Positions 20,603 to 63,870 of a stretch of DNA of 64,000 bases are shown here, piece after piece. This DNA is from a virus (Duplodnaviria; Caudoviricetes): positions 207,183 to 271,182 of IMG/VR virus record IMGVR_UViG_2974506496_000001, one strand, 5' to 3'. The notes beneath the pieces were generated by a model. The model was given only the letters and a program-made list of their open reading frames with translations, had not been told where the DNA came from and did not search any database. Each line of letters opens with the position of its first letter. Position 1 is the stretch's first letter. Position numbers and translations under genes: made by a program.

Positions 20603-20653
20603 GCATAAGGAGAGGCCTCGCGCCTCTCCTGTTTATGCCGTCTTTTTTTTTTT
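20603..20653. terminator. Bidirectional hairpin + TATGCCG element
   Basis: GCATA-aggagaggc/gcctctcct-gttTATGCCG + T run between convergent genes. Confidence 0.8.
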
Positions 20654-21155
20654 ACACTAAAATGCCGTTAAAGGCCACCGGGTCATTAGCCAGGAATGGA
20701 TTGTACCGAACCACGGACCCTAATGTGTAATCGTAATAGATGAAATCCAAGCATTGCGCACCCTGGTAGGTAGTCCATGACTTTGATAGATAACCATTGC
20801 GATCTAACGCAACGTAAGCTGGGCGGCTTGACAACGGAGTAAACTTCATCAACACTTGTGGCTGGTTGTTGAGGTTGTTTGTAAATACAGGCAGGGAAGG
20901 ATGCGCATGCCTTGCAATGGAGCACAACCAAGAGTCGTAGGTAAACCACTCTTTATACGGCGTGCCGTACATGTTGTTGGATGTGTTCAATGTAGTATTA
21001 ACATATTTACCGGCATTGGCGGACATGCTGGTACTCGCGTTCGCTACCTTCGTATATTTGGCGGCATTGGCCGCAAGCCACGCCTCGAATTGTGCATAGG
21101 TCATCTTAGTACCTATCTGTGGCTGTGACTTACTGCCCATTAACATCTCTAACAT
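20652..21155 (-). CDS. LCCL-like domain protein with MLEMLM leader; candidate adhesin
   Basis: MYGTPY..FTYDSWLCSIARHA...AYVALDRNGYLS fits the LCCL pattern; paralog of 21168..21677. Confidence 0.55.
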   Translation of the reverse strand: MLEMLMGSKSQPQIGTKMTYAQFEAWLAANAAKYTKVANASTSMSANAGKYVNTTLNTSNNMYGTPYKEWFTYDSWLCSIARHAHPSLPVFTNNLNNQPQVLMKFTPLSSRPAYVALDRNGYLSKSWTTYQGAQCLDFIYYDYTLGSVVRYNPFLANDPVAFNGILV

Positions 21156-21167
21156 GGTAACTCCTGA

Positions 21168-21677
21168 TTAGATCAACACCCCGTTAAACGGTACCGGTGT
21201 GCCGCCATTTAACGGAGTCCACCGCATCACAACACCCTGGGTATTGTCGTAGTAAATAAAGTCAAGCACAGTACGCCCATTAAATGATCCGTAAGACAAG
21301 CTGGTGTAACCGTTACGATTGAGGCCTGAATAGGCACTTTTGGTAACATAAGGTCCAAGCTTCATTAAACAAAACTGTTTATTCGCCAACATGTAATCAA
21401 ACATCGTTTGTGCCGGACACGCATGTCGTGCGATCCTTGCCCAAGTTGAATCGTGAGTACAGGAGTTTAAATAGGGAGTACCCCACATGTTACCGCCATC
21501 AGCCGTCATGGAGATCCTGGCATAGCCGTTCGTAAACGTGGTGGACGACGGAGTGCCTGTATTCGACGCTGCACTGACCGCACTGTACTTAGTGGTATTG
21601 GTATTTAACCAAGTAACAAAATCCGCATAGCTCATCTTTACAGTTTTCTTGCCAGCGTACATTAATAACTCGAGCAT
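21168..21677 (-). CDS. LCCL-like domain protein with MLELLM leader; candidate adhesin
   Basis: MWGTPY..CTHDSTWARIARHA...AYSGLNRNGYTS; GGAG RBS. Confidence 0.55.
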   Translation of the reverse strand: MLELLMYAGKKTVKMSYADFVTWLNTNTTKYSAVSAASNTGTPSSTTFTNGYARISMTADGGNMWGTPYLNSCTHDSTWARIARHACPAQTMFDYMLANKQFCLMKLGPYVTKSAYSGLNRNGYTSLSYGSFNGRTVLDFIYYDNTQGVVMRWTPLNGGTPVPFNGVLI

Positions 21678-21748
21678 AACTCCACCTCAAAATAAAATCC
21701 CGTTAGCAAGGGTTCTGGTTCTCTAATACATGACTTATAGGATTTAGC

Positions 21749-21778
21749 CGGCATAACGGAGCAGGCAACGCCTACTCC
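21749..21778 (-). terminator. Hairpin + TATGCCG element on the minus strand
   Basis: CGGCATA at 21749; ggagcaggc/gcctactcc stem downstream of the Gly-rich gene. Confidence 0.7.
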
Positions 21779-21818
21779 TGAATCCTGGTGTGAATAACGG
21801 TTGGTCGATTGGGGTATT

Positions 21819-22796
21819 TTAACCCGCTGTAGTTTGATCTGGGTAACCTCGACCTGTCCCCCAGACAATACGAACAATACCATCAGCACCACTACCTAAG
21901 AAACTGGTGCCGTCACTCTTGTACTGACTTGCCCCGCCGCCTCCTGCACCCCCGCCTGGAATCGCGGTAGGTATCCCCGCCCCTGATCCTGGCATATCCT
22001 TGATACGTCCTGTCGATTTAATTCCCCCACCACCTCGACCAGTATAGATCTTGGTAGTGCCTTGGGTCGTCAGGGTAACATTCCCACCATAACCCGCTCC
22101 CGTATCCGCAGGGTTAGTGGGGGTTGCGCCATAAGCACATCCTGCGCCGCCATCGCCCATGTAACCGCCTGCACCGCCACCGCCGACCGCACGTGTCGTT
22201 AATGACCCGGTGCCACCCTTTCCACCTGTACCACCCCCAACAATAGGTTTGGTAGCAGGGTTCTGGATAGGGTTGTTCGCGATCCCGGCTAACACACCGC
22301 CGACGACATTTAACAGCCCGCCGACCAAACCGCCTACTAATCCCCCTACTATATCCACCAATACCAGATCCAGGAGATTACCGGAAAGTCCATTCGACTG
22401 CGGCATGACGGTAACTGCCGTGTTACCGGATGCGTCCTCCCCGCCACCCACTGCTTTTAACAGATAGGTGCCATTACGCGCTATCCCGGAGAAAGACCCT
22501 TTATTCGCCGTGAAGGCGGTTTTAACGGGTGTTGGTGTACCAATCCCACCTTGCCCTACCACAACCGTCATCTTCTCACCAGGAGTCACAGGGATCGCAT
22601 TACGATAACGTAACGTCCCGCCATTCCCGCCGGTGTGTACAAGGGTAGTGCTACTGGCTGATTGCCCACCCCCTACTGCGACGGCACTCATGCTCGTTGC
22701 CCCTTCTGGCACAATCAGTTCGTACACCCCCGCCTTTGTGAAGAGCGTCTCTAGGGGTAACTTAATGTGTGTCTTGTTTAACAATAACCCAATCAT
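21819..22796 (-). CDS. Glycine-rich putative tail-fibre adhesin
   Basis: VAVGGG...GGNGGTLRYRNAIPVTPGEKMTVVVGQGG...GADGIVRIVWG is typical of phage Gly-rich receptor-binding proteins; MIGLLL leader. Confidence 0.65.
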   Translation of the reverse strand: MIGLLLNKTHIKLPLETLFTKAGVYELIVPEGATSMSAVAVGGGQSASSTTLVHTGGNGGTLRYRNAIPVTPGEKMTVVVGQGGIGTPTPVKTAFTANKGSFSGIARNGTYLLKAVGGGEDASGNTAVTVMPQSNGLSGNLLDLVLVDIVGGLVGGLVGGLLNVVGGVLAGIANNPIQNPATKPIVGGGTGGKGGTGSLTTRAVGGGGAGGYMGDGGAGCAYGATPTNPADTGAGYGGNVTLTTQGTTKIYTGRGGGGIKSTGRIKDMPGSGAGIPTAIPGGGAGGGGASQYKSDGTSFLGSGADGIVRIVWGTGRGYPDQTTAG

Positions 22797-22853
22797 GCAT
22801 CATCCTTCTAGAATGAGTACCTTGACGACCTACTCGCGTCATAGCATTCCAGC

Positions 22854-22897
22854 CGGCATAAGGGAGTGGATACCCTGACCGTAGCCAAGGTATCCAC
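22854..22897 (-). terminator. Hairpin + TATGCCG element on the minus strand
   Basis: CGGCATA at 22854; gtggatacc/ggtatccac stem after the DNA polymerase subunit gene. Confidence 0.7.
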
Positions 22898-22905
22898 GTG
22901 GTGCG

Positions 22906-24627
22906 TCAAGCCGCAGCCATGAAATCGATCTCGATGTGTTTTTCTACCATAAAGTCTTTCAGTAACGTAATGGTCTCAGGTGCTTTGTACAACTTACGTG
23001 CAAGTTCACCGGCATTGTTCATACCACCGGCTGCCAGGTTTACTGCTACCTGACGATACTCCGTATCATCCAATCCTTCGATCTGGGTCATCTCAATCCA
23101 GGTGGTTTGTTTCCCCACATTCATGATGACCGTACCGGTCGGGTATGCTCCTTCTACGTCGATGTCGTTCGTACCTGTTCGCACATAGGACTTGACATTC
23201 GGCAGTTCTTTAAACATCGCTTTGCCGTTTAAAGCAACCAGCTCTGTTGGCAGCATGACGATCCAGCCACCCAGCCCCTGAATGTGATCATCCAGTTCGG
23301 TACGCATCTGATCTGATGTAGTACCCCAGATATACCCTTCTTTCATTACATCGTAATGCATCGCCTCAGCGATACGTGTCGGCTGCGATATAAAGTTACG
23401 GTAGTCTGACACCCCGCAGAACGTTGGAACCGCTACAGAGAGATCTGAGGTCTTCTCGTCCATCATTTCAACCACGATGCAGTCGAAGATGTTATACATC
23501 ACATATTCGTACTTGTAGTTGCTCTGCATGAACTCATGCCAGTCTGCCCCGTGGTACCCTTCAGCTTCACTGAACTTCATCTTGGTCACACCGAGTACTT
23601 TCTCTGCGATGTTATCCAGTTTGTAGTTCAGCTCTTTACCGTTCATGGTACGCAGGTAGTAATAGGCTGACATCGATTCAGCCCAACGGAACGACGCAGG
23701 GGCATTGACGTAAGGCCACTTCTCATAGTTAGCTAATGATGTCTTGGTGACTTCTTTGCCATCATTTTTTACTTTGTGGGTTTTGCCCTCGTAGTAATAA
23801 ACGTTACGGTACTCTTGGGGTACCGAGGGATCGCAAATAACGTCAGCAGGGTTGATGCCGGCATTAGTTAATGTTTGGGTGAGAACCTTGTAGTCGAACT
23901 CGAGCACGTTCCAGCCAGTGATGAAATCGGGCATCCACTCATGGGCGCGTTCAAACAGTTTGACAAAGCCATCTGCAGCACTGTCAACCAACACGAACTC
24001 TGGGTTGGTGATGCTGCGTTTGGTTGCCCACTCGCCCAGGTATTTATCCCAGGCCAGTTTCAGCTTCTGATGAATACGTTCATCCGCTTCCCCGCCAAAG
24101 TAGCGACGGATCACAAAGGTAAAGGTGCGTTCTTTAAAGGTTAAGGATGCCATGATCGGCTCACCCTTATACCGCTCGTCTACCATTTCGGTTTCGATAT
24201 CGAACACACTGATTTTGTACGGAGTAAAGGTATCAGGAAACTTCGCTTCGTACATCGCTTTGACAATCGAGGAGGGTTCGATGTCAGCGCCATACACGTA
24301 CGGACTGCGACATACCCGACGCAGTTGCTGATCGGTGGCACCTTTTCCCAACATCTTTGAGATGTGGTTAGGAAGATCCCACTGCGGGCAACTGAACTTC
24401 TGCAGCTTGGACAGCTCTTCGTAATCTTTCTTATCCTGGTGATTGCGGTACGCCGGTTTGGTGAGGTAGTAATCACGCTTCATGTCTTTGATGATGCGGG
24501 TGTGGGGTTTGCTGTTCCCGTTCTCGTCAATCACATTCTCTTTCACGAAGATGATGTCTGATTTGCCGCGCAGAGAAAGGGTATAGATCGCGTGCTTGCA
24601 TTCGAAACGAAGGTTATTGCTGCTCAT
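22906..24627 (-). CDS. Split family-B DNA polymerase, 3'-5' exonuclease-containing subunit (phiKZ gp82-like)
   Basis: ExoI FDIETE, ExoII GWNVLEFD, ExoIII YNIFD, plus motif-A-like DIDVEGAYPT; ORF ends before motifs B/C. Confidence 0.85.
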   Translation of the reverse strand: MSSNNLRFECKHAIYTLSLRGKSDIIFVKENVIDENGNSKPHTRIIKDMKRDYYLTKPAYRNHQDKKDYEELSKLQKFSCPQWDLPNHISKMLGKGATDQQLRRVCRSPYVYGADIEPSSIVKAMYEAKFPDTFTPYKISVFDIETEMVDERYKGEPIMASLTFKERTFTFVIRRYFGGEADERIHQKLKLAWDKYLGEWATKRSITNPEFVLVDSAADGFVKLFERAHEWMPDFITGWNVLEFDYKVLTQTLTNAGINPADVICDPSVPQEYRNVYYYEGKTHKVKNDGKEVTKTSLANYEKWPYVNAPASFRWAESMSAYYYLRTMNGKELNYKLDNIAEKVLGVTKMKFSEAEGYHGADWHEFMQSNYKYEYVMYNIFDCIVVEMMDEKTSDLSVAVPTFCGVSDYRNFISQPTRIAEAMHYDVMKEGYIWGTTSDQMRTELDDHIQGLGGWIVMLPTELVALNGKAMFKELPNVKSYVRTGTNDIDVEGAYPTGTVIMNVGKQTTWIEMTQIEGLDDTEYRQVAVNLAAGGMNNAGELARKLYKAPETITLLKDFMVEKHIEIDFMAAA

Positions 24628-25990: not shown

Positions 25991-26003
25991 GGATTCATCA
26001 GAA

Positions 26004-35997: not shown

Positions 35998-37587
35998 ATG
36001 AGTAAAGCATACCTCCATACCCTGCTGACTGCAGGTAATGAAGCGTTTGATGCAGCCGGCGAACCAGTGGGTGTGACTGTGGTTGATGCCCCGATCGAAG
36101 TGCCTGTTGTTGCAGACCCAGCAGTTGAGCCAGAAGCCCCAGCGGTAACTGATGCGCCAGTGGTTACGCAGGACCCGGTTGAGCCTGATCCAGAACCAGC
36201 AGCGGTCGTCGTTGCCATCAACGAAGATGAGAAAGAGCTGGTCATTGCGTCTACTGAAGCGGCTGCGGCCGAAGTGGTTGTGATCGAATCTGATTGCGCG
36301 CTGGAAGAAGTTGAAGACCTGCTCGACGACCAGATCCAGGTTGTAGCGGAAACTGAAAACATCGTCGCCTCTATGGAATCGTTCGTCGGTTCTGCGATGA
36401 CCATGCAGGATGCGCAAGCCCTGCAGCAGTGGGTGCATAACGCCACCCGTGGTCAATATGACCAAGCTAAAGTTGTCGGCTCTCTGGAAGCGTTCGGTAA
36501 CGACGTCTCTACCGATGATGCGCTGAACGCTGGCCTGGAAGGGATCGGCGAGTTCCTGAAAGCTGCCCGTAATAAAGCAGCTGATCTGCGTAAAGTCATG
36601 GTTGCGCGCTGGAACGCTTTCTTCAAAGATGTGTTCGTGGGCTTTGATAAAGTTGCACGTCGTGCTGATGCGCTGGGTAAACTGGCGAAAGGTACTTCAG
36701 GCGAATCCAACTCCTCTACTATTCAGCTGCCGCTGGATACGGCCTGGCGTCTGGTGAAAGATGGTAAGGTTTCTCAGAACCTGCCGAAAGATCTGGGTGA
36801 CCTGGGTAAATTTGCCAAGGCGGTCTTTAAAGACAACCCGGAAGCGCTGCTGGTGCATCGTAAGAAACTGGTTGACATCGCTGTTCGTCTGTCTACTGCT
36901 GACTATGACGACGCACTGAAGATCGGCAAAGAGCTGGTGAACTTCGAACTGCCAAGCGTTGGCGTGTGCAAAACCAAAGTGGTCAACAACTCCAACACGG
37001 TTGATGTGTATCGCTCTGATGAGTTCCTGGGTGCGCTGTCTATTTTCTATTGCAAGCCTGTTGACAAAATCAATGCGCAGTTACCACTGCCGCGTCAGCT
37101 GTCTGACAAGTTCAACTCCATCATCGCGATCGATGTGAGCGTGTCTGAAACCGGTAAGAAAACACCGAAGCTGGATGTCTCTATTGATACCCTGCAACCG
37201 GCTGAAATCGCCAAAGTGGCTGATGATGTCAACGCTATCCTGGGCGACATCCGTCAGTACCGCACCAACTACGGTGAGTGGTATGCGGCGAACAGCGATC
37301 TGGATCGTGTGATCGGTATCCTGGCGAACGTACCGTGGTCTGGCGATGCTGGCACCACTACTGTCGACAGCACCACTGATGCCGAGGGTAATACCTCAAC
37401 CATCGTGAACATCATCGGTCTGAACCGCGACCTGGCGGATGTGATTGAAGGCATGCATGACATGTATAGCTACCTGTCTGTAAGCCCGATCCGTGTCCTG
37501 TCTGCCGAACTGCTGCCAATCCTGAACCGTGCACTGGAAGTGGGTGAGCGTTCTCTGGCAACCTACAGCGACAACAACCTGGCGTAA
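35998..37587 (+). CDS. Internal head protein, paralog family (phiKZ gp93-like / SPN3US gp53-54-like)
   Basis: Acidic propeptide with AGNE, ASME, GSLE, AGLE sites. Confidence 0.75.
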   Translation: MSKAYLHTLLTAGNEAFDAAGEPVGVTVVDAPIEVPVVADPAVEPEAPAVTDAPVVTQDPVEPDPEPAAVVVAINEDEKELVIASTEAAAAEVVVIESDCALEEVEDLLDDQIQVVAETENIVASMESFVGSAMTMQDAQALQQWVHNATRGQYDQAKVVGSLEAFGNDVSTDDALNAGLEGIGEFLKAARNKAADLRKVMVARWNAFFKDVFVGFDKVARRADALGKLAKGTSGESNSSTIQLPLDTAWRLVKDGKVSQNLPKDLGDLGKFAKAVFKDNPEALLVHRKKLVDIAVRLSTADYDDALKIGKELVNFELPSVGVCKTKVVNNSNTVDVYRSDEFLGALSIFYCKPVDKINAQLPLPRQLSDKFNSIIAIDVSVSETGKKTPKLDVSIDTLQPAEIAKVADDVNAILGDIRQYRTNYGEWYAANSDLDRVIGILANVPWSGDAGTTTVDSTTDAEGNTSTIVNIIGLNRDLADVIEGMHDMYSYLSVSPIRVLSAELLPILNRALEVGERSLATYSDNNLA

Positions 37588-37605
37588 CCGTCATAAGGCA
37601 AAGAG

Positions 37606-38991
37606 ATGTCTTTACACCAAAAGCTCCTCTCTGCCGGGCTGGAGGCGTTTGATGCGCCTCCGGCTGCTCCGGTAGTAGCGGCAGTAGTACCTGCTCCATT
37701 TGATAACAACGCCCCGGTTAGCGAAGACCCGGAACTGATTCGTGAAGAGACTGCCGCTCGTTTAGCGCTCGTGTCGATCATCGAAGCGGAACGTGACGAA
37801 GAAGACTCGCGGTCAGCGGTTTACGAACTGCGTCGTCTGTCTGATGGTTTGGAAGGGTTGATGGTTGAGATTCAAAACGTCAACAACCCAGAAGAACCGA
37901 CTGAAGACGAAATGGCGATGTTGAAAGCCACCGCCCAGCAAGTACGTAAAGAGCTGCTGGAAGATGGTGAGCAAGAACTCGTCATCAATGTCGAAAACGG
38001 CATTCTGGTCGGTTCACAGGAAGGTCTGGCTGATGCCCTCAGTAATGTGGCGAAGAAGATCGGTTTTGCATTAGGTAATGCAGCGAAAGGTTTACTGAGC
38101 AAAGGCGAGCAGGCGAAAGCGCCGTTGTCTTATAACCGTAAACTGGCAGCTGAACTGAAAGCGAAAATCGATAAGCTCGGCACGACAGAATTTGACTTTA
38201 CCATGCCAGCTGATCTGGTCCGTCAGATTCGTGTGAGCGATACCGGTCCGGTTGATGCACTCAAAGCAGTAGCAGACTTCCCGGCAGCACTTGATGCCTG
38301 GTATCTGACCCCTGCTGATGCAGCAATGAACCTGTTTGAAAAACACGCCAACATCGTGCAGGCGATTGCCGGTAGCAAGACTCTCGAAGAGTTCAACACG
38401 AACTATGCGAAACTGAGCTCACTGGCACCACCGCTACCTGCAGGCGCTAAACGCCTTGATCCGATTAACACGCGGGATTATATCTTCGATGTTAATGAAC
38501 ATCACCCAAGTATGGGTCGTGTGGCTCGCTACTATTATGTTGCGCGTCCGGATGTGGGTAAAACGCCTGAAGATAAAGCGCTGGATAATGTCATTGCTTT
38601 GGCGCAGTATTCGACCGGGATCTATCCGTTCGATAAGATCTCTAAACGCAAAGCAACTGATGAGCAGGTGAAGTTCAGCGCGGCTGAAGTCAAAGGCTTG
38701 CTGGATGACATGCTGAAAGCGTGTGACGTGGTTGATAAGTACCTTTCACGTCTTGCAGTCGCCAGCACAATGGATAAGCGCTACAACGCTCTGGTTGATT
38801 TACTCAATAGCGACTTGCGTAAACAAGAGTGGTGTTCCACAGAAGTCAACCGCATGGCACGCGTTGCGTTGATCTCAATGGATGCGTATTATTCATACGG
38901 GTTTGCTTATACCAGTCGTGCTTACGAGCTGATGGAGGTGATCGTCAAGTTGGTGAAGAAAGCCGTGTATAAATCTGACCTCAGTAAGTAA
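37606..38991 (+). CDS. Internal head protein, paralog family
   Basis: MSLHQKLLSAGLEAF start; DGLE, GSQE sites. Confidence 0.75.
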   Translation: MSLHQKLLSAGLEAFDAPPAAPVVAAVVPAPFDNNAPVSEDPELIREETAARLALVSIIEAERDEEDSRSAVYELRRLSDGLEGLMVEIQNVNNPEEPTEDEMAMLKATAQQVRKELLEDGEQELVINVENGILVGSQEGLADALSNVAKKIGFALGNAAKGLLSKGEQAKAPLSYNRKLAAELKAKIDKLGTTEFDFTMPADLVRQIRVSDTGPVDALKAVADFPAALDAWYLTPADAAMNLFEKHANIVQAIAGSKTLEEFNTNYAKLSSLAPPLPAGAKRLDPINTRDYIFDVNEHHPSMGRVARYYYVARPDVGKTPEDKALDNVIALAQYSTGIYPFDKISKRKATDEQVKFSAAEVKGLLDDMLKACDVVDKYLSRLAVASTMDKRYNALVDLLNSDLRKQEWCSTEVNRMARVALISMDAYYSYGFAYTSRAYELMEVIVKLVKKAVYKSDLSK

Positions 38992-39002
38992 ACGGAGAAA
39001 AC

Positions 39003-40373
39003 ATGTCCGCGATTAATGACTTTCTATTTACTGCGGGCATGGAGGGGTTTAACGACCCCTCCTCTATACCGCCCGTTGGTATAGTTGTGCCCTTTTTTGG
39101 TGTTGAGGAGTTCGCCGAAGCGGATGCTGAACAATCTGTACGTATGACAGAGATGAACCAGCAAGCCGAAGCAATTCAACGCCTGCAACAAACGCTGGTC
39201 TACATCAACGCTCACCGTCCGACCTTTGACCGTGAGAATGCTGCCGTCGTGCAGCAAGCACTGGGTGAAGTGCAGGTACTGATGCCCGACATGGAAGACC
39301 CGGTCACCATCATGGGGTCGCTGGAGCATTATACGCCGGCTTACACCAACCACCTGCTTGCGCACGGTATTGAAGGCATTGGTGATAAGATCCTGAGCGT
39401 GGTCAAGAAGATCATCGAACTCTTGAAGAAAGGTTATGCCTTCTTGAGTAAAGCCATCCAGGCAAAGGGTGTGGTCTTCGGTAAACAGAAGCGCGAACTC
39501 GATGACCTCAATGCGTGGTTTAAAGAGCAACGCAAAAGCAACGATAAGCCCGCTACCACCACCGGTAATGAACCTAAGGTTGTTACGGTCACTGCCCCGA
39601 CCTATCTGTACACCGTCGACAGTAACAAACCGTTAGCGGCAGATCGCTTAGCAAGCGAAGTGGCAAAGTACAATAAATTCCTGCAGGCCTTCTCGGTTGA
39701 TTTCATCCGGGCGCATATTACCCTGGGTGATCTCTATATTCGTGCACTGGGTAGTCTGGATATTGCCAGCACCAGTAACGAAGAGTTGTTCACCAAGATG
39801 TTTAAGGGCCAGTTTAAATACCAGGCCTCGGGTGCATCGCTGTACACCAAACGCAACGGCGAGATGTGTGATATCGAAACAGTTGGGTTGATTGGCGGGA
39901 TTGGCTTTAAAGCCTCCATCGCGAATATCCTGGTCGCACCGCTTGAGATGACTGCAGACGGTTCTAACCAGCGTAAGTTCTTCAAGCAGATGAACGGGTT
40001 ATACAACTACAGTTTTGTCTCCAAAATAAAAATGGATGGCAGTACGGTAGGGAATACCCCAATCTATGCTTGCAGTCTCGCTGACGCTGAGCGGTTGGTG
40101 AATCAACTTGATATGTTGACCAACTGGATGATTAACAGTCAACACGACGAAGAGATCCGTGACTTTAATAAGCGGGTGACTGAGTGTGTGGATAAGCTGG
40201 CTGATCGTGCCGGTCGTCTGGGTAATGACCGCAGTGATTTTATCACTACTGTGATCAACGCCTTGTCTGGTATCTCCAGTGGTCTGGAAAATGTGTCTCG
40301 TGGCATGAATCAGCAAACGAACACATTGATCAACAACTTGCGTGAGTACGTTACCAAATCCACGAAAGCGTAA
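39003..40373 (+). CDS. Internal head protein, paralog family
   Basis: MSAINDFLFTAGMEGF start; GSLE, HGIE sites. Confidence 0.75.
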   Translation: MSAINDFLFTAGMEGFNDPSSIPPVGIVVPFFGVEEFAEADAEQSVRMTEMNQQAEAIQRLQQTLVYINAHRPTFDRENAAVVQQALGEVQVLMPDMEDPVTIMGSLEHYTPAYTNHLLAHGIEGIGDKILSVVKKIIELLKKGYAFLSKAIQAKGVVFGKQKRELDDLNAWFKEQRKSNDKPATTTGNEPKVVTVTAPTYLYTVDSNKPLAADRLASEVAKYNKFLQAFSVDFIRAHITLGDLYIRALGSLDIASTSNEELFTKMFKGQFKYQASGASLYTKRNGEMCDIETVGLIGGIGFKASIANILVAPLEMTADGSNQRKFFKQMNGLYNYSFVSKIKMDGSTVGNTPIYACSLADAERLVNQLDMLTNWMINSQHDEEIRDFNKRVTECVDKLADRAGRLGNDRSDFITTVINALSGISSGLENVSRGMNQQTNTLINNLREYVTKSTKA

Positions 40374-40466
40374 ATTATTATATGTGTTAACGGCCCTGCA
40401 GGAAACGCGGGGCCTTATCACAATACGATCGTATTTAATTTCATGAAATTAAGGTAGAGACTCACT

Positions 40467-41822
40467 ATGTCTATTCAAGCATTTTTAAACCTCGGCGCCG
40501 AGGCTTTCGAAGACGCACCGGTTGTTGAAGAAGCACCGGTTGTAGTTGTTGCACCAGTACCAGAAGAAGTGATCGAGCTGATTGCCGAGCGTGATGATTC
40601 GAACATCGCCCTGGCTATTGCTCAGGATGCGGCGGCAATGTCTGCTGCTGAGCGTCAGGTGGAAGAGTTTGCTTCCGCAATCGAGCGCGTTGAAAATGTC
40701 CAGGCATCAATGGAGCACTTCATCGAAGCGGGCCTGTCGCAGAAATCAGCAATGATGCTGCATCGCCAGATCTCAACAGTTATGGCATCTGTCGGCAAGG
40801 ATGGCAGCGCCATCGGTGGCGGTCTGGAAAACTTCGACAACGAAGAAGCCAGCATTGCACTGCTGACCGCTGGTCTGGAAGCACTGGATGCCGAGAAAGC
40901 CGATCTGTCCTCCCGTGCCGGTGCATCTATTGCCGGTATCGCTGGTAACATTAAAAGCTTTCTGGGCAACATCAGTACTCAGGCCGGTCGTTATAAACTG
41001 CGTGCTGAAGCGATCGTTAAATCTGCTGACGGCGCTGAAGCCAAGTCCGGTACTGTTGAAGTAAAAGATAAACACCTGGTTGTAAAAGGTGGCAATCCAT
41101 CAACTAACCTGAAAGGCGATCTGGGTAACTTCAGCAAGCTGGTTGGTGCGGCAATCGCTACCTTCATCGAAGGCGATATCGTTAAAGAAGGCAGCGCCCT
41201 GGCAAAAGCTGGCGAGACCATCATTAAAGCGACTACCGCTGATGTGGCAGTGAAAGCTGCAATGGGTGTGAAACACAATCCATTCCCGGGCGCAACCATC
41301 GCAGTGCAGGACAAAGACACCTTCAGTATCAAACGTACTGAAGTGGTTCTCGGCGGCTATGCGGTATTCGATCTGCAATATAAAGCCACCGGCGGCGAAG
41401 GTGCTGAAGCAGCTGTTGCGCATCTGAATGCACTGAGCAAAAACCGCGTTACTCTTCGTCAGGCTCCAGTTGAAGCTGGTAGCGAGAAAGTATTCTCTGC
41501 CACTATGTCTCCGGCCGATGGCGCAGCACTGGCGAAAGATGTTATCGCAATGCTGGACAACATCACAGCGGTCAATAACCGTAGCCTGGGTGCGGTAAGT
41601 GGTGCACTGGCCCGTCTGGGTACCAGCGTTGTGTTGAAAGGTGCTGTGGCGAAAGACGCAGACAAAGACGTGAAGAAAATTGCTGGTGCCATGGGTAAAA
41701 CCCTGGTTGGTTCTATCCAGGCTGTTAACAGTCTGCCACGCGATGCCCTGAGCGCTGCGCTGAAAGTGTCTGATGCTGTACTGAAAGTTGCTAAGAAAGC
41801 TGCTGCAGGTCAAGTAGACTAA
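40467..41822 (+). CDS. Internal head protein, paralog family
   Basis: LGAEAF, ASME, GGLE, AGLE sites; VLGGY motif. Confidence 0.75.
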   Translation: MSIQAFLNLGAEAFEDAPVVEEAPVVVVAPVPEEVIELIAERDDSNIALAIAQDAAAMSAAERQVEEFASAIERVENVQASMEHFIEAGLSQKSAMMLHRQISTVMASVGKDGSAIGGGLENFDNEEASIALLTAGLEALDAEKADLSSRAGASIAGIAGNIKSFLGNISTQAGRYKLRAEAIVKSADGAEAKSGTVEVKDKHLVVKGGNPSTNLKGDLGNFSKLVGAAIATFIEGDIVKEGSALAKAGETIIKATTADVAVKAAMGVKHNPFPGATIAVQDKDTFSIKRTEVVLGGYAVFDLQYKATGGEGAEAAVAHLNALSKNRVTLRQAPVEAGSEKVFSATMSPADGAALAKDVIAMLDNITAVNNRSLGAVSGALARLGTSVVLKGAVAKDADKDVKKIAGAMGKTLVGSIQAVNSLPRDALSAALKVSDAVLKVAKKAAAGQVD

Positions 41823-41893: not shown

Positions 41894-44236
41894 ATGTCAA
41901 CCATGACAGAACTGGGTCCGTCACAAGGCACACTCCTTGCGGATGAGAAAGCAGTACACGATGACGCGGCCACCGAAGCCACCGAAGTTGCACTCCACGT
42001 ATTAAAGAAGATTGGTAAGAAGAAAGAGAAAGATGACGAGGATGAAGAGGTCGTGCTCTCCTTTGGTAGCGAAGGCTATGCCATGCTCACCAGTATGTCA
42101 TTTGATCTGACTGAGAACTCCGATCTGGCCGTACAGGAACTCCTGGATAAGATCACCACCATCGTCATTGAAGCAAATGGCAATCTCACGCAGAAAGATC
42201 TGGAGAAGATCAAGAGTGTGGGGAATGAGTCGTTATTAGGCGATGGGAATGAAGACTATAAAGAAGTCGTCACCATGGTCATGAAACGGATCATGCAATT
42301 CATTCGCTGGGCGATCAACCAGGGTAAGGAAGGGATCAAACGGGTTGCTGACCGCTTGAGTCGTCTGAGCGTGAAGACGATGTATGTTGAGCGTAAGATC
42401 GATATCTCCACTGACAACTCATTGCCGACTGACAAGTTTGTGTTACCGCGCAGCTATCCAATGCTGATGATGGTGAACAAACCACCGGCCAATGCCATGG
42501 AAGTGATTAACGCCGTCAACCGCACCAAGTATCTCTTCACCACGCTACATAACGACTACCAAGGCTTCCAGGCGTTGTTTAAGGCAGCGGTAGCCACTGG
42601 CTCTCGGGCTGACACCTTAGAGATGATCAACAACTATCTCAACGGGTTGATCAGTAAGCTCTCAGCACGCCCTAACCCACTGTTCGATAACCGCAATACC
42701 TTTAACCAGTTACCGGGTGGGTATCGTCTGGTGTTCTCAGAAGGTCAGTCGTTTGCGGATTGTGGGGCAACGATCCTGCGTACGCCGGAGAAATACGAAG
42801 CCGCACCGGCGGTTCAGCGTCCAGATAAAGCGAGTCTGGTACGGTTGGTCAGTGAGATCAAAACCTACCTGCGGGTGATTAACGAAGTCTACGGTAAAGT
42901 CTCCAGTCGGTTGGAGGTTGATTTCCGTAACATCGTGAAAGCCGCTGAGAAAGAAGTGAAGGGGTTTGATTCAACAGCAGATATCCGCACTGCCTCGACC
43001 ACCATCGAATGGTTCACCGAACAGCAGTCACGCCTGTATACCCGCTCAATGATGCTCTCTTGTACGGTATTGAATGCCGCGCTTGATTACTGTCTGGGTG
43101 CCATTGGGGCGAAACCGGCTGTCGGGACCGAAAGCTTTGATATCCTTGATACCTCATCAATGGGTTATGCGATCGAGTCGCTGGGCGAGCAAATGGAACG
43201 GCTTGACGCTGGCTTGTGTGAACTGGAGATCGATGCCCGTACTATGCAGTCGATTACCGATGTCAAAGAGATGGTAGATGTCGATAACGATCACGTCATC
43301 CAGCTTCTGATGCAACAGCGCCCAAGCAGCTATTTCAATCCACCGGATGGACTGTCAGAGTACTCGCTGGGTGATGCCTTTAACGGCAGTGCTACGGCAC
43401 GTTATATTGGCAGGCGTTTAACCAGTATCGTTAACCTCACGAATCAGCTCTCAGGCACCACGGATTTGATGAAAGGGTTATTGGCTGAAATGCCAACGGG
43501 TGAGATCAAGCCAGGCAGTGATGCGGATGTAATCGAGCGTAACTCGTTGCTTGACCGGGAGATGTTTGAAGGTCATCCCCTGTGTGCGTTCCTGCATCGG
43601 GTAGACCGGGAAGGTATCTACGCCACCGATGTGATTCGCTATGTTACTGACACCTATGAGAAACTGCGTCAAGTGCGCACGACTCTGGCGGTTCAGGCTG
43701 AGCAGATGACACTAACAGTGGCTGATGGTGAGATGAACGTGAGCTTGTTGAAAGAGTTCCTGTTTAACGCCCCTCAGGAGCCCTTCACGGACAGCGTACT
43801 CTGTGGTGGATTCAGACTACAACCTGTAGCAGAAAAGCTCGGAGAACTCGTTATACACGGTGCTGTGATGGATTCCCCTCCACCACTGAAACCGATGACG
43901 ACTATCCATCGCCCAAGCTACGACGAGTATAATGGTGTCAACCAGCTGGCAAGCCTGTTCGGTAATGAACTGCGGGAACTGGCTAAGATCGCAGAGCGGC
44001 TACAAATCGGCACAGGGTATTTGCGCTACATCACAACCTCAGTAGCGGACAACCTCAATGAGGATGGCTTGAAAGGGGGTGGTGATGGTTGGTTCAATAC
44101 TGCACTTGAGTACTTGGCGGTGTCAGCACGCCAGTATCGCTGGATGTATCGCCTAACTGTTCAGTTGGCGGTGTATGAACACACCATGATCAATGCCCTG
44201 CGTCACTACAACAACTCAGGAGGCTGGCATGACTGA
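41894..44236 (+). CDS. Large head protein, apparent tandem fusion of two paralog-family domains
   Basis: 780 aa; LPGGYRL and LCGGFRL in the two halves; G-x-E sites at the N-terminus and mid-protein. Confidence 0.6.
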   Translation: MSTMTELGPSQGTLLADEKAVHDDAATEATEVALHVLKKIGKKKEKDDEDEEVVLSFGSEGYAMLTSMSFDLTENSDLAVQELLDKITTIVIEANGNLTQKDLEKIKSVGNESLLGDGNEDYKEVVTMVMKRIMQFIRWAINQGKEGIKRVADRLSRLSVKTMYVERKIDISTDNSLPTDKFVLPRSYPMLMMVNKPPANAMEVINAVNRTKYLFTTLHNDYQGFQALFKAAVATGSRADTLEMINNYLNGLISKLSARPNPLFDNRNTFNQLPGGYRLVFSEGQSFADCGATILRTPEKYEAAPAVQRPDKASLVRLVSEIKTYLRVINEVYGKVSSRLEVDFRNIVKAAEKEVKGFDSTADIRTASTTIEWFTEQQSRLYTRSMMLSCTVLNAALDYCLGAIGAKPAVGTESFDILDTSSMGYAIESLGEQMERLDAGLCELEIDARTMQSITDVKEMVDVDNDHVIQLLMQQRPSSYFNPPDGLSEYSLGDAFNGSATARYIGRRLTSIVNLTNQLSGTTDLMKGLLAEMPTGEIKPGSDADVIERNSLLDREMFEGHPLCAFLHRVDREGIYATDVIRYVTDTYEKLRQVRTTLAVQAEQMTLTVADGEMNVSLLKEFLFNAPQEPFTDSVLCGGFRLQPVAEKLGELVIHGAVMDSPPPLKPMTTIHRPSYDEYNGVNQLASLFGNELRELAKIAERLQIGTGYLRYITTSVADNLNEDGLKGGGDGWFNTALEYLAVSARQYRWMYRLTVQLAVYEHTMINALRHYNNSGGWHD

Positions 44237-44576
44237 TAACAGTAACAAGGCGTTGTATAATGCAGCGCGCTTGCCTGTTCTTTACGAGTACCCGCATGAC
44301 TTCACCCCGTATGCCCGTTTACTGGCTAACGAGAAGCAAGGCGCACAACCTTCGCAGGCGTTTGCTGAGATGCTGGCTAAGGTAACGGGTGATCCCTGGA
44401 CACTGACCCCTAAGCAACCGTATACCCTGTACGGTGCCAAGGTGACGTTGATTGGTGAGAACCAGCCCAACTTCCCAACCAGTAAACGGTTTCCTTACGT
44501 CCTGGTGTTGCAGTTGAGTACCAGGTATCAAGAACGCAAGTTATACCTGAGCTTTAAGATCTTGAAATCGAGCTGA
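44229..44576 (+). CDS. Small putative virion protein
   Basis: ATG 44229 with GGAGG RBS overlapping the previous gene end. Confidence 0.6.
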   Translation: MTDNSNKALYNAARLPVLYEYPHDFTPYARLLANEKQGAQPSQAFAEMLAKVTGDPWTLTPKQPYTLYGAKVTLIGENQPNFPTSKRFPYVLVLQLSTRYQERKLYLSFKILKSS

Positions 44577-44613: not shown

Positions 44614-45315
44614 TTATGCTTGTGGTGCTTCGCCACTGCCATCAGCTGGCGTGGTTTCATCTTCACTGAACGTATTGGGAATACGAGGCAGATCACCAAT
44701 CACAGTTGCGGAGGTTACCGCGTTCTTGAAAGTCCAGTAACGCTCAAGGTACGCATTATAAGACTCCAGCAGACGCTCAACCACGTCGATCACTTCAACC
44801 GGTAAGAGTTCAACCATTTGACCGTCAACAGTACGCAGACGAAATTTGGTTTCATCGGAGGCCCCGACGCGTTTCTCACCGACCACACGCATGCCCATCA
44901 GGTTAGCGCGTTCTTCAGCAGTCATCACCACTTTATAGTCTGTGCTTTCATGAGTAAATGCAATGCCGTTGTTAAGATCATTACTGATGATCTCTTTGGC
45001 ACTTTGCAGTGACATGTCTTTACCCATTGCCAGGTTGGCTGCGAGCTCTTCTTCATTATAAGCCCGCACATCCCAGAATTGGTAATAAAGACCGTCATCA
45101 CCTTTAACCGGTGTACCTTCGGTCACCACATCGCCATCCGGTCGATCAACCATGTTGACCATGGCGTAAGGACGAGGAAGGTTCAGCAGCTTCTCAGACT
45201 CGATGGTGCTACCCCAGCTGGTCTGCATGTTGTCCTGACGGGCATCATACATGTACTTCGGGTAAGCCATATCCTCGATACGGACGAGGGGTGTAGAATT
45301 CGTTACTGTAGTCAT
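44614..45315 (-). CDS. Fibre assembly chaperone-like protein (DUF4376/Tfa-like)
   Basis: Directly downstream of the fibre gene; RPDGDVVTEGTP..DGLYYQFW and a C-terminal helical domain ending VIGDLP. Confidence 0.55.
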   Translation of the reverse strand: MTTVTNSTPLVRIEDMAYPKYMYDARQDNMQTSWGSTIESEKLLNLPRPYAMVNMVDRPDGDVVTEGTPVKGDDGLYYQFWDVRAYNEEELAANLAMGKDMSLQSAKEIISNDLNNGIAFTHESTDYKVVMTAEERANLMGMRVVGEKRVGASDETKFRLRTVDGQMVELLPVEVIDVVERLLESYNAYLERYWTFKNAVTSATVIGDLPRIPNTFSEDETTPADGSGEAPQA

Positions 45316-45363: not shown

Positions 45364-48462
<3,099 letters not shown>

Positions 48463-48521: not shown

Positions 48522-49055
48522 TTATGCCACGCTTTCAAGCTTCAGTGGCTGGCCGTCTTCAGTTGTGAGCCATTGACCACTTTCAGTCAGCAGGACAGGC
48601 TGCTGCGTCGCACCGGTGTTAATCAGCACCGCAAGGGTACCTTCATAGACGAGGCTACCTTGGAAGACGATGTCGTGCATGATACGACCTTCGCTGTCCG
48701 TGTTGTTCGCGTCAATGGTGCGATCTGAAATGTCATTGGCTGTGACCTGCAAGCCGTAACGACCGTTTAACGTCGCCAGCAGATCTTTAGTTGTGGATGG
48801 AGTACTAACAGTGAGTTCTGGAACAATGCCAAAAAACAACGTCGATACCTTGAGTCGGTCGAGGTTGACGATATTGCTCCCAACGTACCCTTTGTCAGCT
48901 ACAGCAATAACAGGGATGTCGGTATCGCGTTTACCCGCTCCTGTCACTGGCGTAGGGACACCAAAGTTAATTTGATCAGCCTGGATAGTAAGATTATTAT
49001 CCTGGTTAATTTGATCAACGATGATTTGGGCCGATGGCTGATTCAGGATGGTCAT
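48522..49055 (-). CDS. Virion structural protein; candidate anchor/adaptor for the collagen fibre
   Basis: First gene of the fibre operon; LLATLNGRYGL, SLVYEG; C-terminal LLTESGQWLTTEDGQPLKLE. Confidence 0.6.
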   Translation of the reverse strand: MTILNQPSAQIIVDQINQDNNLTIQADQINFGVPTPVTGAGKRDTDIPVIAVADKGYVGSNIVNLDRLKVSTLFFGIVPELTVSTPSTTKDLLATLNGRYGLQVTANDISDRTIDANNTDSEGRIMHDIVFQGSLVYEGTLAVLINTGATQQPVLLTESGQWLTTEDGQPLKLESVA

Positions 49056-58176: not shown

Positions 58177-58183
58177 ACTTAAT

Positions 58184-59983: not shown

Positions 59984-60011
59984 TATGCCCCTCGTTATAA
60001 GGTAATTAACC

Positions 60012-60783: not shown

Positions 60784-63051
60784 ATGGCATTGAAACTTCT
60801 GCATGTAGCTAAAACCGCCGACATGCTGTCACGCATCCAATCTCAGATCAATGGCGGCCATGCATCAGGCGACGCTACCGCGGTTAAAAGCTACGGTATG
60901 GAGTCGCTTGACGGCAACACTCTGGGCGCGCAGGAAACCGCCATCAAAAATGGTATCTCTGTCATTACCGACGTGATCGCTCAGGGCACTGCATCTCAGG
61001 GCCAGAGCTACGCCGGTAACGGTCTGGAAGGTTTCTCTGATGCACAGATCCAAGCGGCATCAATCGCACTGACTATCGGTGGTGACTTCCAGGGTTACAT
61101 CGGTGCACTGAAAAACAACTCTAACCGTGCCATGTCTGCATCTGACCTGAGCCTGGTTTCCGGTAGCCGTTACGGCTCTGCTAACATGAAGCAGGGTTAC
61201 GGTACCGAAGCTTTCGAACAGGCGCAGAGCTTTGTTCCTCAGCAGAACGCAACGGTTGAATACAACCTGAAAGCGGCTAAGCAGGATGCCGTTGGTGAAG
61301 CCTTCTTCCCAACTACTACCCTGACGCCAAACGACATCGGCCTGAGCGTAACTGTGCCGGTTGACATCGTTGAACCTTTCATCAAGCACAAAGCAAATGG
61401 CGAAGTGACGGATTGGCAGCGTAAGAAGCTCATCAACGCAATGCGTGACCCGACCATTCTGCGTAACGACGCGATCAAGCTGATTCCTTATCGTCCACTG
61501 GACGGCAGCAACGACGCACAGTTCGCAGTAGGCGTGCCGAAGTTCAACGAAATTCAGGGCGGCGAAGAAGTACCAACTGGTGCACTGAAGCCTGGTATCA
61601 AAATCGGTTTCATGGGTCTGTGCTCTACTCCGTCTCTGGTTCAGGCCGGCGCGCTGGAAGCATCTGATCAGATCGACACCGGTGCTCGTCTGCAGTACAT
61701 CTGGATCGAAGTAGCTAACGCCTCTGGTACCAAAGAGCTGTTCAAGCTGCGTACTGATCACCTGGATCGTTCTACTTTCCAGAAATCTCAGGAAGGCGAT
61801 AAGTTCGAGACGTCTCTGGACTTCTCTAACATCACCATCGCGCTGAACGACCTGAACAAAACCACCGACAACACCGATTCAGCTCTGCTGGCTCCGTTGG
61901 TGACTTCTGGTCAGCAAGCGATCCTGGCGCTGGATATCAAAGGCACCATGAACCACGAGAAAGGCAGCCTGGTAGTTAACTCGCTGACTAACCCGTCTAT
62001 CATCCGTGTTTACGATACCGTGGCTAAAGAAGATGCGAACACCAAGTCTGGTGCTCTGCGTGACGCAATCGACGCTCTGACGATCACCTTCAAAGGTTAC
62101 TTCGTCCGCGCTAACCTGCGTAACAGCAACTTCCGTACCCGCGAGCAGCGTGTTGACCGCCAGACTTCCGTGTACAAGTACATGGTACAGCTGGGCGCGC
62201 CAATCACTGCTATCGCTCCAGTAACTGACGCATGGGGCCCGAAAGAGTCTATCGCAGTTGAAACCCTGAGCAACGCAACGTATGCACGTAACTCCGCAAT
62301 GGCTATCAGCCGTCTGCTGGACTACGTTGAAACCATCCGTGATGCAGGCGTGACCAACAACGGTCTGTGGCAGCGTTACGATGAGAACAGCATCGAAGGC
62401 GTTGGTAAAGCTGTAGTTGATCCATGGTACGGCGAAGGTAGCTTTGACATCTCTAAAGTTGTCAACGGTGTTAAATCTTCTCAGACCCGCGATGACGTTT
62501 CTGAAAAGATCCTGAACATCCTGCGTACCTACGCATACCGCATGAACGCCGAGTCTGGCTACAACGTTGCACTGCAGATGCTGTACAACGAAGTTCAGCC
62601 AACGCTGGTTATCGCAACCGACAACATCATCGCGCAGTACCTGATGGAAGTTGGTGACCTCCGCACAGCTGGTATCAGCTTCAAAGTGCACGTGGCCACC
62701 ACCAACAACATCGAGATGCGCGGCAAGATCATCATGACCCTGTCTCGTATGAAGTCAGGCGGTCTGGATCTGCTGACGTTCGGTATGCACCTGTGGGTGC
62801 CTGAGATCGTAGCAACTGTTAACGTAATGCGTAACGGTACCTACATCGAAGAAACCATGGTGCAGCCGCGTAACCTGCACGTAGTGGTTTGCCCAATCGT
62901 GGCGAACATCACCATCACCGGTCTGGAAGAAGCGTACACCGGCAAGATCACTGTCCCTGTTGACATCGTGAGCGAGCCTGAGTCTGCTGGCGCCCAAGAC
63001 CTGGGTGGTCTGAACACTACTCCGGCAACTACTACCAACCCTGCTGCGTAA
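60784..63051 (+). CDS. Major capsid protein (phiKZ gp120-like)
   Basis: 755 aa; propeptide with YGME, NGLE, YGTE sites; YNLKAAKQDAVGEAFFPT; VQPRNLHVVVCPI; strong codon bias; follows dnaB as in phiKZ. Confidence 0.9.
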   Translation: MALKLLHVAKTADMLSRIQSQINGGHASGDATAVKSYGMESLDGNTLGAQETAIKNGISVITDVIAQGTASQGQSYAGNGLEGFSDAQIQAASIALTIGGDFQGYIGALKNNSNRAMSASDLSLVSGSRYGSANMKQGYGTEAFEQAQSFVPQQNATVEYNLKAAKQDAVGEAFFPTTTLTPNDIGLSVTVPVDIVEPFIKHKANGEVTDWQRKKLINAMRDPTILRNDAIKLIPYRPLDGSNDAQFAVGVPKFNEIQGGEEVPTGALKPGIKIGFMGLCSTPSLVQAGALEASDQIDTGARLQYIWIEVANASGTKELFKLRTDHLDRSTFQKSQEGDKFETSLDFSNITIALNDLNKTTDNTDSALLAPLVTSGQQAILALDIKGTMNHEKGSLVVNSLTNPSIIRVYDTVAKEDANTKSGALRDAIDALTITFKGYFVRANLRNSNFRTREQRVDRQTSVYKYMVQLGAPITAIAPVTDAWGPKESIAVETLSNATYARNSAMAISRLLDYVETIRDAGVTNNGLWQRYDENSIEGVGKAVVDPWYGEGSFDISKVVNGVKSSQTRDDVSEKILNILRTYAYRMNAESGYNVALQMLYNEVQPTLVIATDNIIAQYLMEVGDLRTAGISFKVHVATTNNIEMRGKIIMTLSRMKSGGLDLLTFGMHLWVPEIVATVNVMRNGTYIEETMVQPRNLHVVVCPIVANITITGLEEAYTGKITVPVDIVSEPESAGAQDLGGLNTTPATTTNPAA

Positions 63052-63078
63052 GCACCAGGCGCGAGAGTAATCCGTAGC

Positions 63079-63118
63079 GCATAAACAGAGGAGGAGCATT
63101 GCTCCTCCTCTTATGCCG
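63079..63118 (+). terminator. Hairpin + TATGCCG element
   Basis: GCATAA..agaggaggagc/gctcctcctct-TATGCCG, no U-tract. Confidence 0.8.
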
Positions 63119-63156
63119 TGTGATTTTATAGAGGCACACACCAGGGGCGGATAGTA

Positions 63157-63870
63157 ATGCTTGAATTACTAATGATAGGAAGGAAGAAAGCAACAGGGGG
63201 TGGGACACCTGCGGATCTTGGACCAGGACCTGCCTCCATGCTTGGGTATTACGAGCGACCGGATGGCGGTAACTCAGGGTACTTCGGTACCTTTACTAAT
63301 TTTGTTTCAACAGCCGGGTTATGTCAATCTATCGGGTTAACTGCAGGTTACCAGCAAGTTGAGAATGCCACTTGGCATAAGTTTCTGTTAGATGGTAAGA
63401 TCCTCTTTATACCAACCAACTATATCGTACGTAATCTTCACTGGAACTACATTTATAATGCCGGGGCAGTATACGGGGATGACAGTTTTGGTCTTTATCA
63501 AAGCCCAACGCCAACAGCACAGAGTGCCATGCATGTGACGGTGGATGGTCGGGTTTATCGCGTGCGGTTAGTATCTATCTCAAATGGCGATCCGGCTCTG
63601 ACAGGCCAAATCGATAAAACCACCGAATGGGGTCGGTTGATGTATCCGATTGATCCAACGGTAGATGCTAGTAATACTGAAGCGGGTAAGAAATGGGGTA
63701 ACGTGGGACTGCTTTTGAGTTCAACGCAGATTCTGGCAAAGGAGACCTACGCCAGCACACCTGCTAGTAGCCTGGTTGTGGTTACGAATTCTACGACACG
63801 CTCCGCTCAATCTAAATCATCCGCACCCAGTAACTGCACCTGGCGTCCGATTCTTGAACTTGTGCAGTAA
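63157..63870 (+). CDS. phiKZ gp131-family-like tail-associated protein with MLELLM leader
   Basis: GPGP, GYFG, IGLTAG, WHKFLLDGKILF, IYNAGAVYG, YRVRL, EWGRL, terminal WRPILEL. Confidence 0.7.
   Translation: MLELLMIGRKKATGGGTPADLGPGPASMLGYYERPDGGNSGYFGTFTNFVSTAGLCQSIGLTAGYQQVENATWHKFLLDGKILFIPTNYIVRNLHWNYIYNAGAVYGDDSFGLYQSPTPTAQSAMHVTVDGRVYRVRLVSISNGDPALTGQIDKTTEWGRLMYPIDPTVDASNTEAGKKWGNVGLLLSSTQILAKETYASTPASSLVVVTNSTTRSAQSKSSAPSNCTWRPILELVQ

Follow-up and report, generated by a model that had tools for sequence, protein, structure and literature searches.

In T2/S16-type phages, the adhesin gp38 is a separately encoded, Gly-rich protein whose N-terminal part binds the C-terminal tip of the trimeric long tail fibre. 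In T4, the unrelated proteins IPI, IPII, IPIII and Alt carry an N-terminal address of about ten residues, the capsid-targeting sequence (CTS), which directs its cargo into the head and is cleaved off. The tailspikes of K1-5, K1E and SP6 follow the same docking-peptide principle as the branched systems of receptor-binding proteins (RBPs) in Klebsiella podophages. In the latter (KP32, K11 and KP34), a conserved short N-terminal peptide docks the secondary RBPs (PMC6872550); a further paper reports an experimental validation of the docking peptide (PMC13352976). A different mode of display is provided by DUF7941 (PF25613) proteins, which polymerise head to tail by strand docking into baseplate-anchored filaments, some of them with carbohydrate-binding domains (PMC13742148). 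Here, we relate these systems to a 64-kb window of DNA (bases 207183-271182, i.e., the final part, of a 271,182-bp phage genome), in which otherwise unrelated adhesin-like proteins start with a common hexapeptide, in the following called the tag. The genome shares 98% identity with Desertfox, MadMel and Deimos-Minion (DM), which are jumbo phages of Erwinia amylovora from the genus Agricanvirus, a phiKZ-like, nucleus-forming group. Positions refer to the window unless they are marked as genome positions.

We lean towards reading M-[LFI]-E-[LM]-L-[LM] and the linker behind it as a portable N-terminal virion-attachment (docking) peptide for accessory adhesins. That is, the phage would put the tag plus a linker of 6-20 residues, rich in Gly, Ser, Ala, Lys and Pro, on small bodies of lectin or adhesin type (LCCL-like, Gly_rich_2, Kelch and gp83-type), the tag would hold these bodies non-covalently on a fibre scaffold, and the bodies could then serve as accessory, interchangeable host-recognition heads. 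We favour this reading because tagged homologues are annotated as virion proteins, phiKZ gp298 has an adsorption phenotype, phage SPN3US carries corresponding fusion proteins, and the tag co-occurs and is syntenic with a fibre. From these observations we infer that the tag itself binds and persists on the mature protein, and likewise which surface acts as its socket.

Recurrence of the tag within the genome and in other phages

Seven genes of the genome are tagged, four within the window and three elsewhere (Table 1). They follow the pattern M-[LF]-E-[LM]-L-[LM] with one degenerate member, their bodies belong to four families, and the tag is followed by a Gly/Ser/Lys-rich linker. The four window genes and their N-termini are exactly those reported by the initial annotation, whose proposed search of this and related proteomes for the tag added the three genes elsewhere in the genome and further phages. 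A purine-rich, Shine-Dalgarno-like stretch is located 5-10 nucleotides (nt) 5' of all four window starts.

The recurrence of the tag in the genome exceeds chance. The motif [LFIM]E[LM]L[LM] has 9 occurrences in the six-frame translation of all 271,182 bp, and 6/9 directly follow the start codon of an open reading frame (ORF) of at least 160 amino acids (aa). Among the predicted ORFs (86,629 residues), the sole occurrence that is not placed after the gene's start codon is found in g40106, and the remaining gene starts of the genome (about 330) are without the motif.

Codon choice varies freely between the tag copies (TTA/CTC/CTT/TTT; GAG/GAA; TTG/ATG/TTA/CTG). Selection thus acts on the peptide, which bears out the protein-level conservation that had been claimed for the window genes. 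One could instead attribute the likeness of the gene starts to a nucleic-acid feature of translation initiation, i.e., an AT-rich, unstructured 5' coding start, given that several copies use AT-rich codons (TTA, ATG, GAA) within a genome of 50% G+C. We find this hardly credible, since the synonymous variation is wide (CTC, CTT, CTG, GAG, TTG) and extends to GTG starts, since some 330 other gene starts of the same genome do without the motif, and since phages that differ widely in G+C content and codon usage retain the same peptide.

The degenerate member is the N-terminus MIGLLL of the 325-aa protein, which lacks the Glu3 that all six canonical tags of the genome have. It had been proposed as one of the four tags of the window. 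We count it as a degenerate member only, and do so because its two Gly-rich paralogues have canonical tags (MFEMLL and MFELLL); a tag that has decayed is the best interpretation.

Over all fetched loci, 48 distinct tagged N-termini were collected. Their consensus is M-L-E-[M/L]-L-[L/M]-[G/S]-[G/S]-[G/K]-K-K, where the frequency at position 3 is circular, as the search expression demanded E or D there. At residues 7-16, G makes up 20%, S 12%, A 10%, and K and P 9% each. In the AlphaFold2 (AF2) model of the 169-aa window protein, residues 3-6 of the tag form a low-confidence helix.

Start-codon calls hide the tag in some public records. The public annotation of Deimos-Minion gp324 begins at Met28 and thereby omits the tag (window 63157..63237; Deimos-Minion locus 6656..6736), and the ESM Atlas copy of the 237-aa window protein also starts at residue 28.

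By pattern scans of whole phage records with a subsequent check of the ORF context, the tag was found in 12 further phages or contigs. A strict scan provided 14 forward matches, compared to 0 for the backwards-read control pattern. The tag starts gp83 and gp298 of phiKZ (both MFELLL), gp452 (MIDLLM) and gp456 (MIDLML) of 201phi2-1, as well as gp155 (MIEALL) and gp153 (MLESQL) of EL. Four tagged genes are present in PCH45, at least three in Noxifer, at least five in Ralstonia phage FLC1-1B, at least ten in Salmonella phage SA002 and three in the 229-kb IMG/VR jumbo-phage contig L079. Proteus phage 10 shows MLESIL on an LCCL-like body; for Burkholderia phage SURPRISE13, the pattern scan matched codons for MLDLLM with the ORF context unconfirmed. 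The tag also occurs outside the chimalliviruses in Vequintavirinae, i.e., at least four times in PBES 02 (with LCCL-like, Kelch and ConA-lectin bodies) and once in SSE121, where the body is Gly_rich_2-like by eye. SPN3US and Goslar are without a credible tagged gene start, also when the relaxed pattern is used.

Bodies behind the tag and their place in the virion

The 167-aa and 169-aa proteins of the window are LCCL-like paralogues with 41% identity, both of which match phrog_6409 (E 3e-88 for the former). The AF2 model of the 169-aa protein has a predicted local distance difference test (pLDDT) score of 93. Foldseek places the LCCL domain 1jbi at rank 2 for this model (prob 0.99, E 0.026), with template modelling (TM) scores of 0.39 (query-normalised) and 0.61 (target-normalised), i.e., weak fold support; the same search has no match at E <= 0.001, and none of the tagged window proteins has a Pfam LCCL match. 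The 325-aa protein scores 35.9 bits for Gly_rich_2 (PF21722) and is thus above the Pfam cut-off of 24.3, as is its paralogue at genome 83714+ (25.8 bits); the paralogue at genome 96831- remains under the cut-off with 17.4 bits.

In the 237-aa protein, the tag and a Gly-rich linker precede a domain of about 210 residues with the motif 'GPGP...GYFG...WRPVLELV'. By alignment, the N-terminal parts of phiKZ gp83, 201phi2-1 gp452 and EL gp155 consist of this domain, in gp83 ahead of a Kelch domain. A tblastn search with the 237-aa protein provides matches in 111 phage records, many of them aligned from residue 1, and a search of the ESM Atlas only unnamed clusters. The initial annotation had labelled this protein gp131-like, a label that found no support: there is no sequence match at E <= 1 in the PDB (a database expected to include gp131) and no match within the phiKZ genome at E <= 0.01, where the latter search is of low sensitivity and also missed gp83. 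The nearest phiKZ relative is gp83, both by alignment and by GenBank note. Two of the proposed body families, LCCL-like and Gly-rich, are thereby retained, the third is gp83-type, and the Kelch-like protein outside the window makes four.

Tag and body can be followed as separate modules within the LCCL-like family, which comprises 193 representative clusters (full HMMER search with the 169-aa query). We took a census of the tags of its 119 stand-alone members of 140-215 aa. MLELLL-type tags were found for 38 of them, MLPFP-type for 19, MLHMP-type for 6 and xNPGIL-type for 6. That is, in other lineages the body carries MLPFP.., MLHMP.PML.. or ..NPGILAAG.. instead, and the same 'Y..F' helix opens the body behind every tag type. 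Longer relatives are either tandem bodies or fusions to the DUF7941 N-domain. As judged from these sequences, tag and body shuffle independently.

Such fusions are found in SPN3US. Its gp121 and gp118 consist of a DUF7941 N-domain (positions 1-153 of the hidden Markov model, HMM) directly followed by a gp83-type 'GPGP...GYFG' body, and its gp112 combines the N-domain with an LCCL-like body. The same bodies are thus covalently linked in SPN3US and supplied with the hexapeptide in the Erwinia phage.

Several tagged homologues are recorded as virion proteins. The records of phiKZ gp83 and gp298 as well as EL gp155 bear the annotation of structural virion proteins; that of 201phi2-1 gp452 carries the note 'identified as virion protein by mass spectrometry'. 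Described as a virion Kelch protein of low abundance, phiKZ gp298 is encoded by a gene (orf298) that is dispensable on PAO1; the respective transposon (Tn) mutant, orf298::Tn, adsorbs to PAO1 and fails to do so on two wild strains (bioRxiv 10.1101/2025.11.23.690004). The plug-in docking idea of the initial annotation fits these virion annotations, the gp298 phenotype and the SPN3US fusions; the physical binding itself remains putative.

Alternatively, the tag could be a capsid-targeting sequence like the T4 CTS, by which cargo would enter the head and be ejected into the host. T4 provides the precedent of an N-terminal CTS of about ten residues on unrelated internal proteins, and the phiKZ gp83 record carries the note 'structural head protein'. 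Nevertheless, we consider capsid targeting very unlikely: the bodies are of lectin or adhesin type (Kelch, LCCL-like, Gly-rich and, in PBES 02, ConA-like), the need for phiKZ gp298 in adsorption is a function outside the head, and tagged genes are syntenic with the tail fibre and not with head genes.

Collagen-like fibre and other possible partners of the tag

The most likely docking partner would be the collagen-like fibre module, as suggested by its distribution over tagged and tagless phages. For PBES 02, we compared bases 1-116,000 of 149,732 with the genome. The two phages share two tagged bodies, the 1032-aa fibre (43% identity to ADU18_0115 over 800 residues), the 233-aa protein whose gene is immediately downstream and otherwise only a ribonucleotide reductase subunit and an HNH nuclease. 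Besides the two tagged bodies, the fibre and the 233-aa protein are thus the sole virion-type proteins in common.

A homologue of the fibre's C-terminal domain (C-domain) is found in all tag-bearing phages tested, i.e., SA002, PCH45, Noxifer, FLC1-1B, SURPRISE13, phiKZ, EL and 201phi2-1; in phiKZ it is gp146, a 'tail fiber protein' (E 1.5e-11). No homologue is found in the tagless SPN3US and Goslar. Overall, the C-domain occurs in 271 phage records, mainly from Vequintavirinae and relatives and from phiKZ-like phages. An out-of-sample check of such fibre-domain phages identified the tagged gene of SSE121; phi92, which has part of the domain only, is without a tagged gene. The 233-aa protein is distributed like the C-domain, apart from phiKZ and 201phi2-1, in which no homologue of it was found.

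Fibre gene, 233-aa gene and tagged gene(s) are contiguous in six phages (EL, Noxifer, FLC1-1B, PCH45, SA002 and L079). In EL, gp156 (fibre) is followed by gp155 (tag and gp83-type body), gp154 (233-aa homologue) and gp153 (tag and Kelch body). The collagen fibre's C-terminal domain had already been suggested as a possible socket. It is kept here as a candidate for binding, with the fibre being the only structural module found together with the tag in two unrelated groups of phages, often in adjoining genes. Within the fibre, (G-D-K)n collagen runs alternate with about 10 knob repeats of about 60 residues each ('LP...GD.Y......Y.W.G..F...G'). Compared to the C-terminal tip, such knobs could present a far larger number of binding sites.

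Several observations weigh against a docking peptide that engages this fibre. The sample for the co-occurrence of tag and fibre is small and phylogenetically non-independent. The match to the C-domain is weak in EL, and in 201phi2-1 it is weak and covers the N-terminal third only. 4MG has the fibre domain and shows no tag by the strict ATG pattern. In the Erwinia phage genome itself, the tagged genes do not adjoin the fibre gene. Concerning the virion, there is the head-protein note of phiKZ gp83 mentioned above; a text check for gp83, gp145 and gp146 found none of the three in the main text of the cryo-EM atlas of phiKZ, which covers 40 proteins (PMC13250141). Furthermore, the 44 proteins listed by mass spectrometry of crude RAY and Deimos-Minion lysates do not include the tagged DM gp288-290 and gp324. 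The latter may be of low copy number or absent in virions; as a crude-lysate list, these 44 proteins are uninformative in this respect.

A socket could also be provided by the DUF7941 filament in place of the collagen-like fibre, such that tagged adhesins cap or decorate a DUF7941 'fibre cloud'. This is in line with the head-to-tail strand docking of DUF7941 (PMC13742148), with the SPN3US proteins in which a DUF7941 N-domain is fused to the same bodies and with motifs of the form L-x-x-L-[VI] in the DUF7941 linker, e.g., 'DLEELI' in the protein at genome 12311-13129; the likeness of tag and linker is weak and by eye. The genome encodes three full DUF7941 genes as well as split N-domain-only and C-domain-only genes that flank the fibre operon. 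The N-domain-only gene is directly upstream of the fibre gene, and its product is kept as a stand-alone protein of 175-177 aa in relatives. SA002 shows the same split layout, with the N-domain-only gene upstream, on the same strand and at a distance of about 4 kb, into which the fibre ORF of 1386 aa would fit. However, no DUF7941 match is found in PBES 02 despite its four or more tagged genes, and the chimalliviruses richest in DUF7941 (SPN3US with 17 matches, Goslar with 10) are tagless. The case of PBES 02 speaks against DUF7941 as a universal socket. Together, both observations point to DUF7941 as an alternative display scaffold and not as the general socket; as the socket of the tag, we regard it as improbable. 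The four tagged window proteins themselves have no match to the Pfam HMM of DUF7941 at E <= 0.1.

The 233-aa protein raises a further alternative, namely a role of the tag as a signal for assembly or quality control that a chaperone reads during folding or loading, so that a later contact within the virion is not needed. The chaperone would be either the 233-aa protein or a host chaperone that recognises Leu-rich cores with basic flanks. The tag does show a hydrophobic Leu/Met core followed by a Lys/Gly-rich stretch, and the 233-aa gene is placed between or beside tagged genes in the six phages listed above. The 233-aa protein has a weak, sub-threshold DUF4376 match. For its AF2 model (pLDDT 91), VIA-align provides only prefoldin-like helical hairpins with Z <= 6.6, i.e., within the noise level stated for the tool; Foldseek reports nothing at E <= 0.001 and a PDB sequence search is empty. 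Since, in addition, the conserved Glu within the hydrophobic core is atypical of chaperone-binding motifs and the four unrelated body folds fold without this tag in other lineages, we deem a chaperone signal rather unlikely.

If the docking reading with the fibre as partner is extended to all tagged phages, tag and collagen-like/long tail fibre would form a transferable two-part display system within Chimalliviridae and Vequintavirinae, i.e., two unrelated groups of myoviruses. Small lectin domains that gain the tag would load onto the fibre, each phage would display 2 to more than 10 accessory adhesins as a mixed set able to evolve, and tagless relatives would fuse the domains to DUF7941. We put this generalisation forward as a possibility that we ourselves view with considerable doubt.

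The initial annotation also described the tagged genes as cassettes that are bounded by a hairpin-TATGCCG element. The element is real and consists of a hairpin rich in G+C with (T)TATGCCG behind it. It is found with a perfect stem of at least 5 bp in at least 43 copies, which are spread over the whole 271-kb genome before and behind genes of all kinds. Given this genome-wide distribution, it delimits no special cassettes. Often it directly follows a stop codon 25-130 nt before the next gene, and sometimes it can be read on both strands of one palindrome (genome 27553/27586, TATGCCGATT). It is probably a combined terminator and promoter signal for the phage RNA polymerase, i.e., a general transcription punctuation.

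Some neighbouring genes are included in Table 1. The neighbourhood of the DNA polymerase gene adjoins tagged genes here as well as in phiKZ (gp82/gp83), SA002, SURPRISE13 and PBES 02, a recurrent pairing without obvious reason. The tagged trio is also adjoined by a gene for a strongly acidic, low-complexity protein of 526 aa, whose orthologue (Deimos-Minion gp287, RAY gp281) is one of the proteins retrieved best by the published mass spectrometry of lysates. Finally, four tandem paralogues have their own common N-terminal motif, ..LL[ST]AG.EAFD...

Table 1. Tagged genes, candidate partners and neighbouring features (window positions unless marked as genome positions)
Feature	Position	Strand	Remarks
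MLEMLMGSK start	20652..21155	-	167 aa; tag, linker and LCCL-like body
MLELLMYAGKK start	21168..21677	-	169 aa; tag, Lys-rich linker and LCCL-like body
MIGLLLNK start, degenerate tag	21819..22796	-	325 aa; Gly_rich_2 protein
MLELLMIGRKK start	63157..63870	+	237 aa; tag, Gly-rich linker and gp83-type domain
MLELLMLGH start	genome 46128	+	312 aa; Kelch-like; outside window
MFEMLLGG start, GTG start codon	genome 83714	+	Gly-rich (Gly_rich_2); outside window
MFELLLNSS start, GTG start codon	genome 96831	-	Gly-rich (Gly_rich_2); outside window
Collagen-like beaded tail fibre	45364..48462	-	1032 aa; Collagen Pfam matches; phrog_3904 tail fibre
Fibre C-terminal domain	45367..45885	-	last 173 residues; best candidate socket
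Fibre-linked protein	44614..45315	-	233 aa; phrog_4998; candidate fibre chaperone/adaptor, alternative socket
DUF7941 N-domain-only protein	48522..49055	-	177 aa; PF25613 positions 1-155; directly upstream of fibre gene
DUF7941 C-domain-only protein	44193..44576	+	127 aa; PF25613 positions 185-261; phrog_11456, phrog_1037
TATGCC of hairpin element (start positions)	5671, 8478(-), 15409, 20634, 29254(-), 44607, 57238, 63112		
DNA polymerase gene neighbourhood	22906..24627	-	adjoins tagged genes
Acidic low-complexity protein	19007..20587	+	526 aa; adjoins tagged trio
Tandem paralogues	35998..41822	+	529, 461, 456 and 451 aa, then a 780-aa protein

Comparison with known systems

Host recognition of jumbo phages is poorly understood, and the recent virion structures of phiKZ and Goslar leave long fibres and low-copy adhesins unresolved. 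If the tag is indeed a docking peptide, accessory adhesins could be listed from sequence alone, even though their genes are scattered and mostly annotated as 'hypothetical'. It would furthermore explain how proteins like phiKZ gp298 reach the virion, and it would offer a testable, modular handle on the host range of Erwinia and Pseudomonas phages. Setting the tag-plus-body genes against the DUF7941-body fusions of SPN3US connects two ways of display, which previous work describes separately, if at all.

A full-text literature search for 'MLELL' identified no phage paper, and neither the phiKZ atlas nor the Goslar paper (PMC13742148) nor the phiKZ Tn preprint mentions a shared N-terminal peptide or attachment mechanism. 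The MLELLM-type tag thus appears to be undescribed in the searchable literature. The principle of an attachment peptide is known from small phages with branched RBPs; the tag itself appears new.

The closest counterpart is given by the KP32-type RBPs, where again a short N-terminal peptide is common to otherwise unrelated proteins. There, it attaches them non-covalently to a shared site of another virion protein and makes host range modular; in our case, receptor binding, docking and modular host range are putative. Here, the short peptide is shared by seven genes of four body families in the genome and by about 48 distinct N-termini over the fetched loci. The two systems are without sequence relation, and the conserved part comprises six residues in the tag. 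They also differ in number (up to at least ten tagged proteins per genome vs. one secondary RBP), in the displayed bodies (small lectin-like domains vs. trimeric depolymerase spikes) and in the carrier, i.e., the tag is found in myoviruses (Chimalliviridae, Vequintavirinae) with the collagen-like fibre module as candidate socket.

The Goslar DUF7941 proteins gp22, gp23, gp86, gp92 and gp161 (PMC13742148) display adhesin-type domains at the tail periphery, as the tagged proteins would do. Their attachment, in contrast, is covalent and uses a module of about 150 residues, for which the tagged window proteins show no match. Compared to gp38 of T2/S16-type phages, the folded N-terminal attachment domain is replaced by a hexapeptide. 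The T4 CTS differs with regard to its cargo, since the tagged bodies are adhesin-like and one of them shows an adsorption phenotype. Finally, gp83 and gp298 of phiKZ, gp452 and gp456 of 201phi2-1 as well as gp155 and gp153 of EL carry the same tag as the Erwinia phage proteins, and gp83, gp452 and gp155 also share the same body domain.

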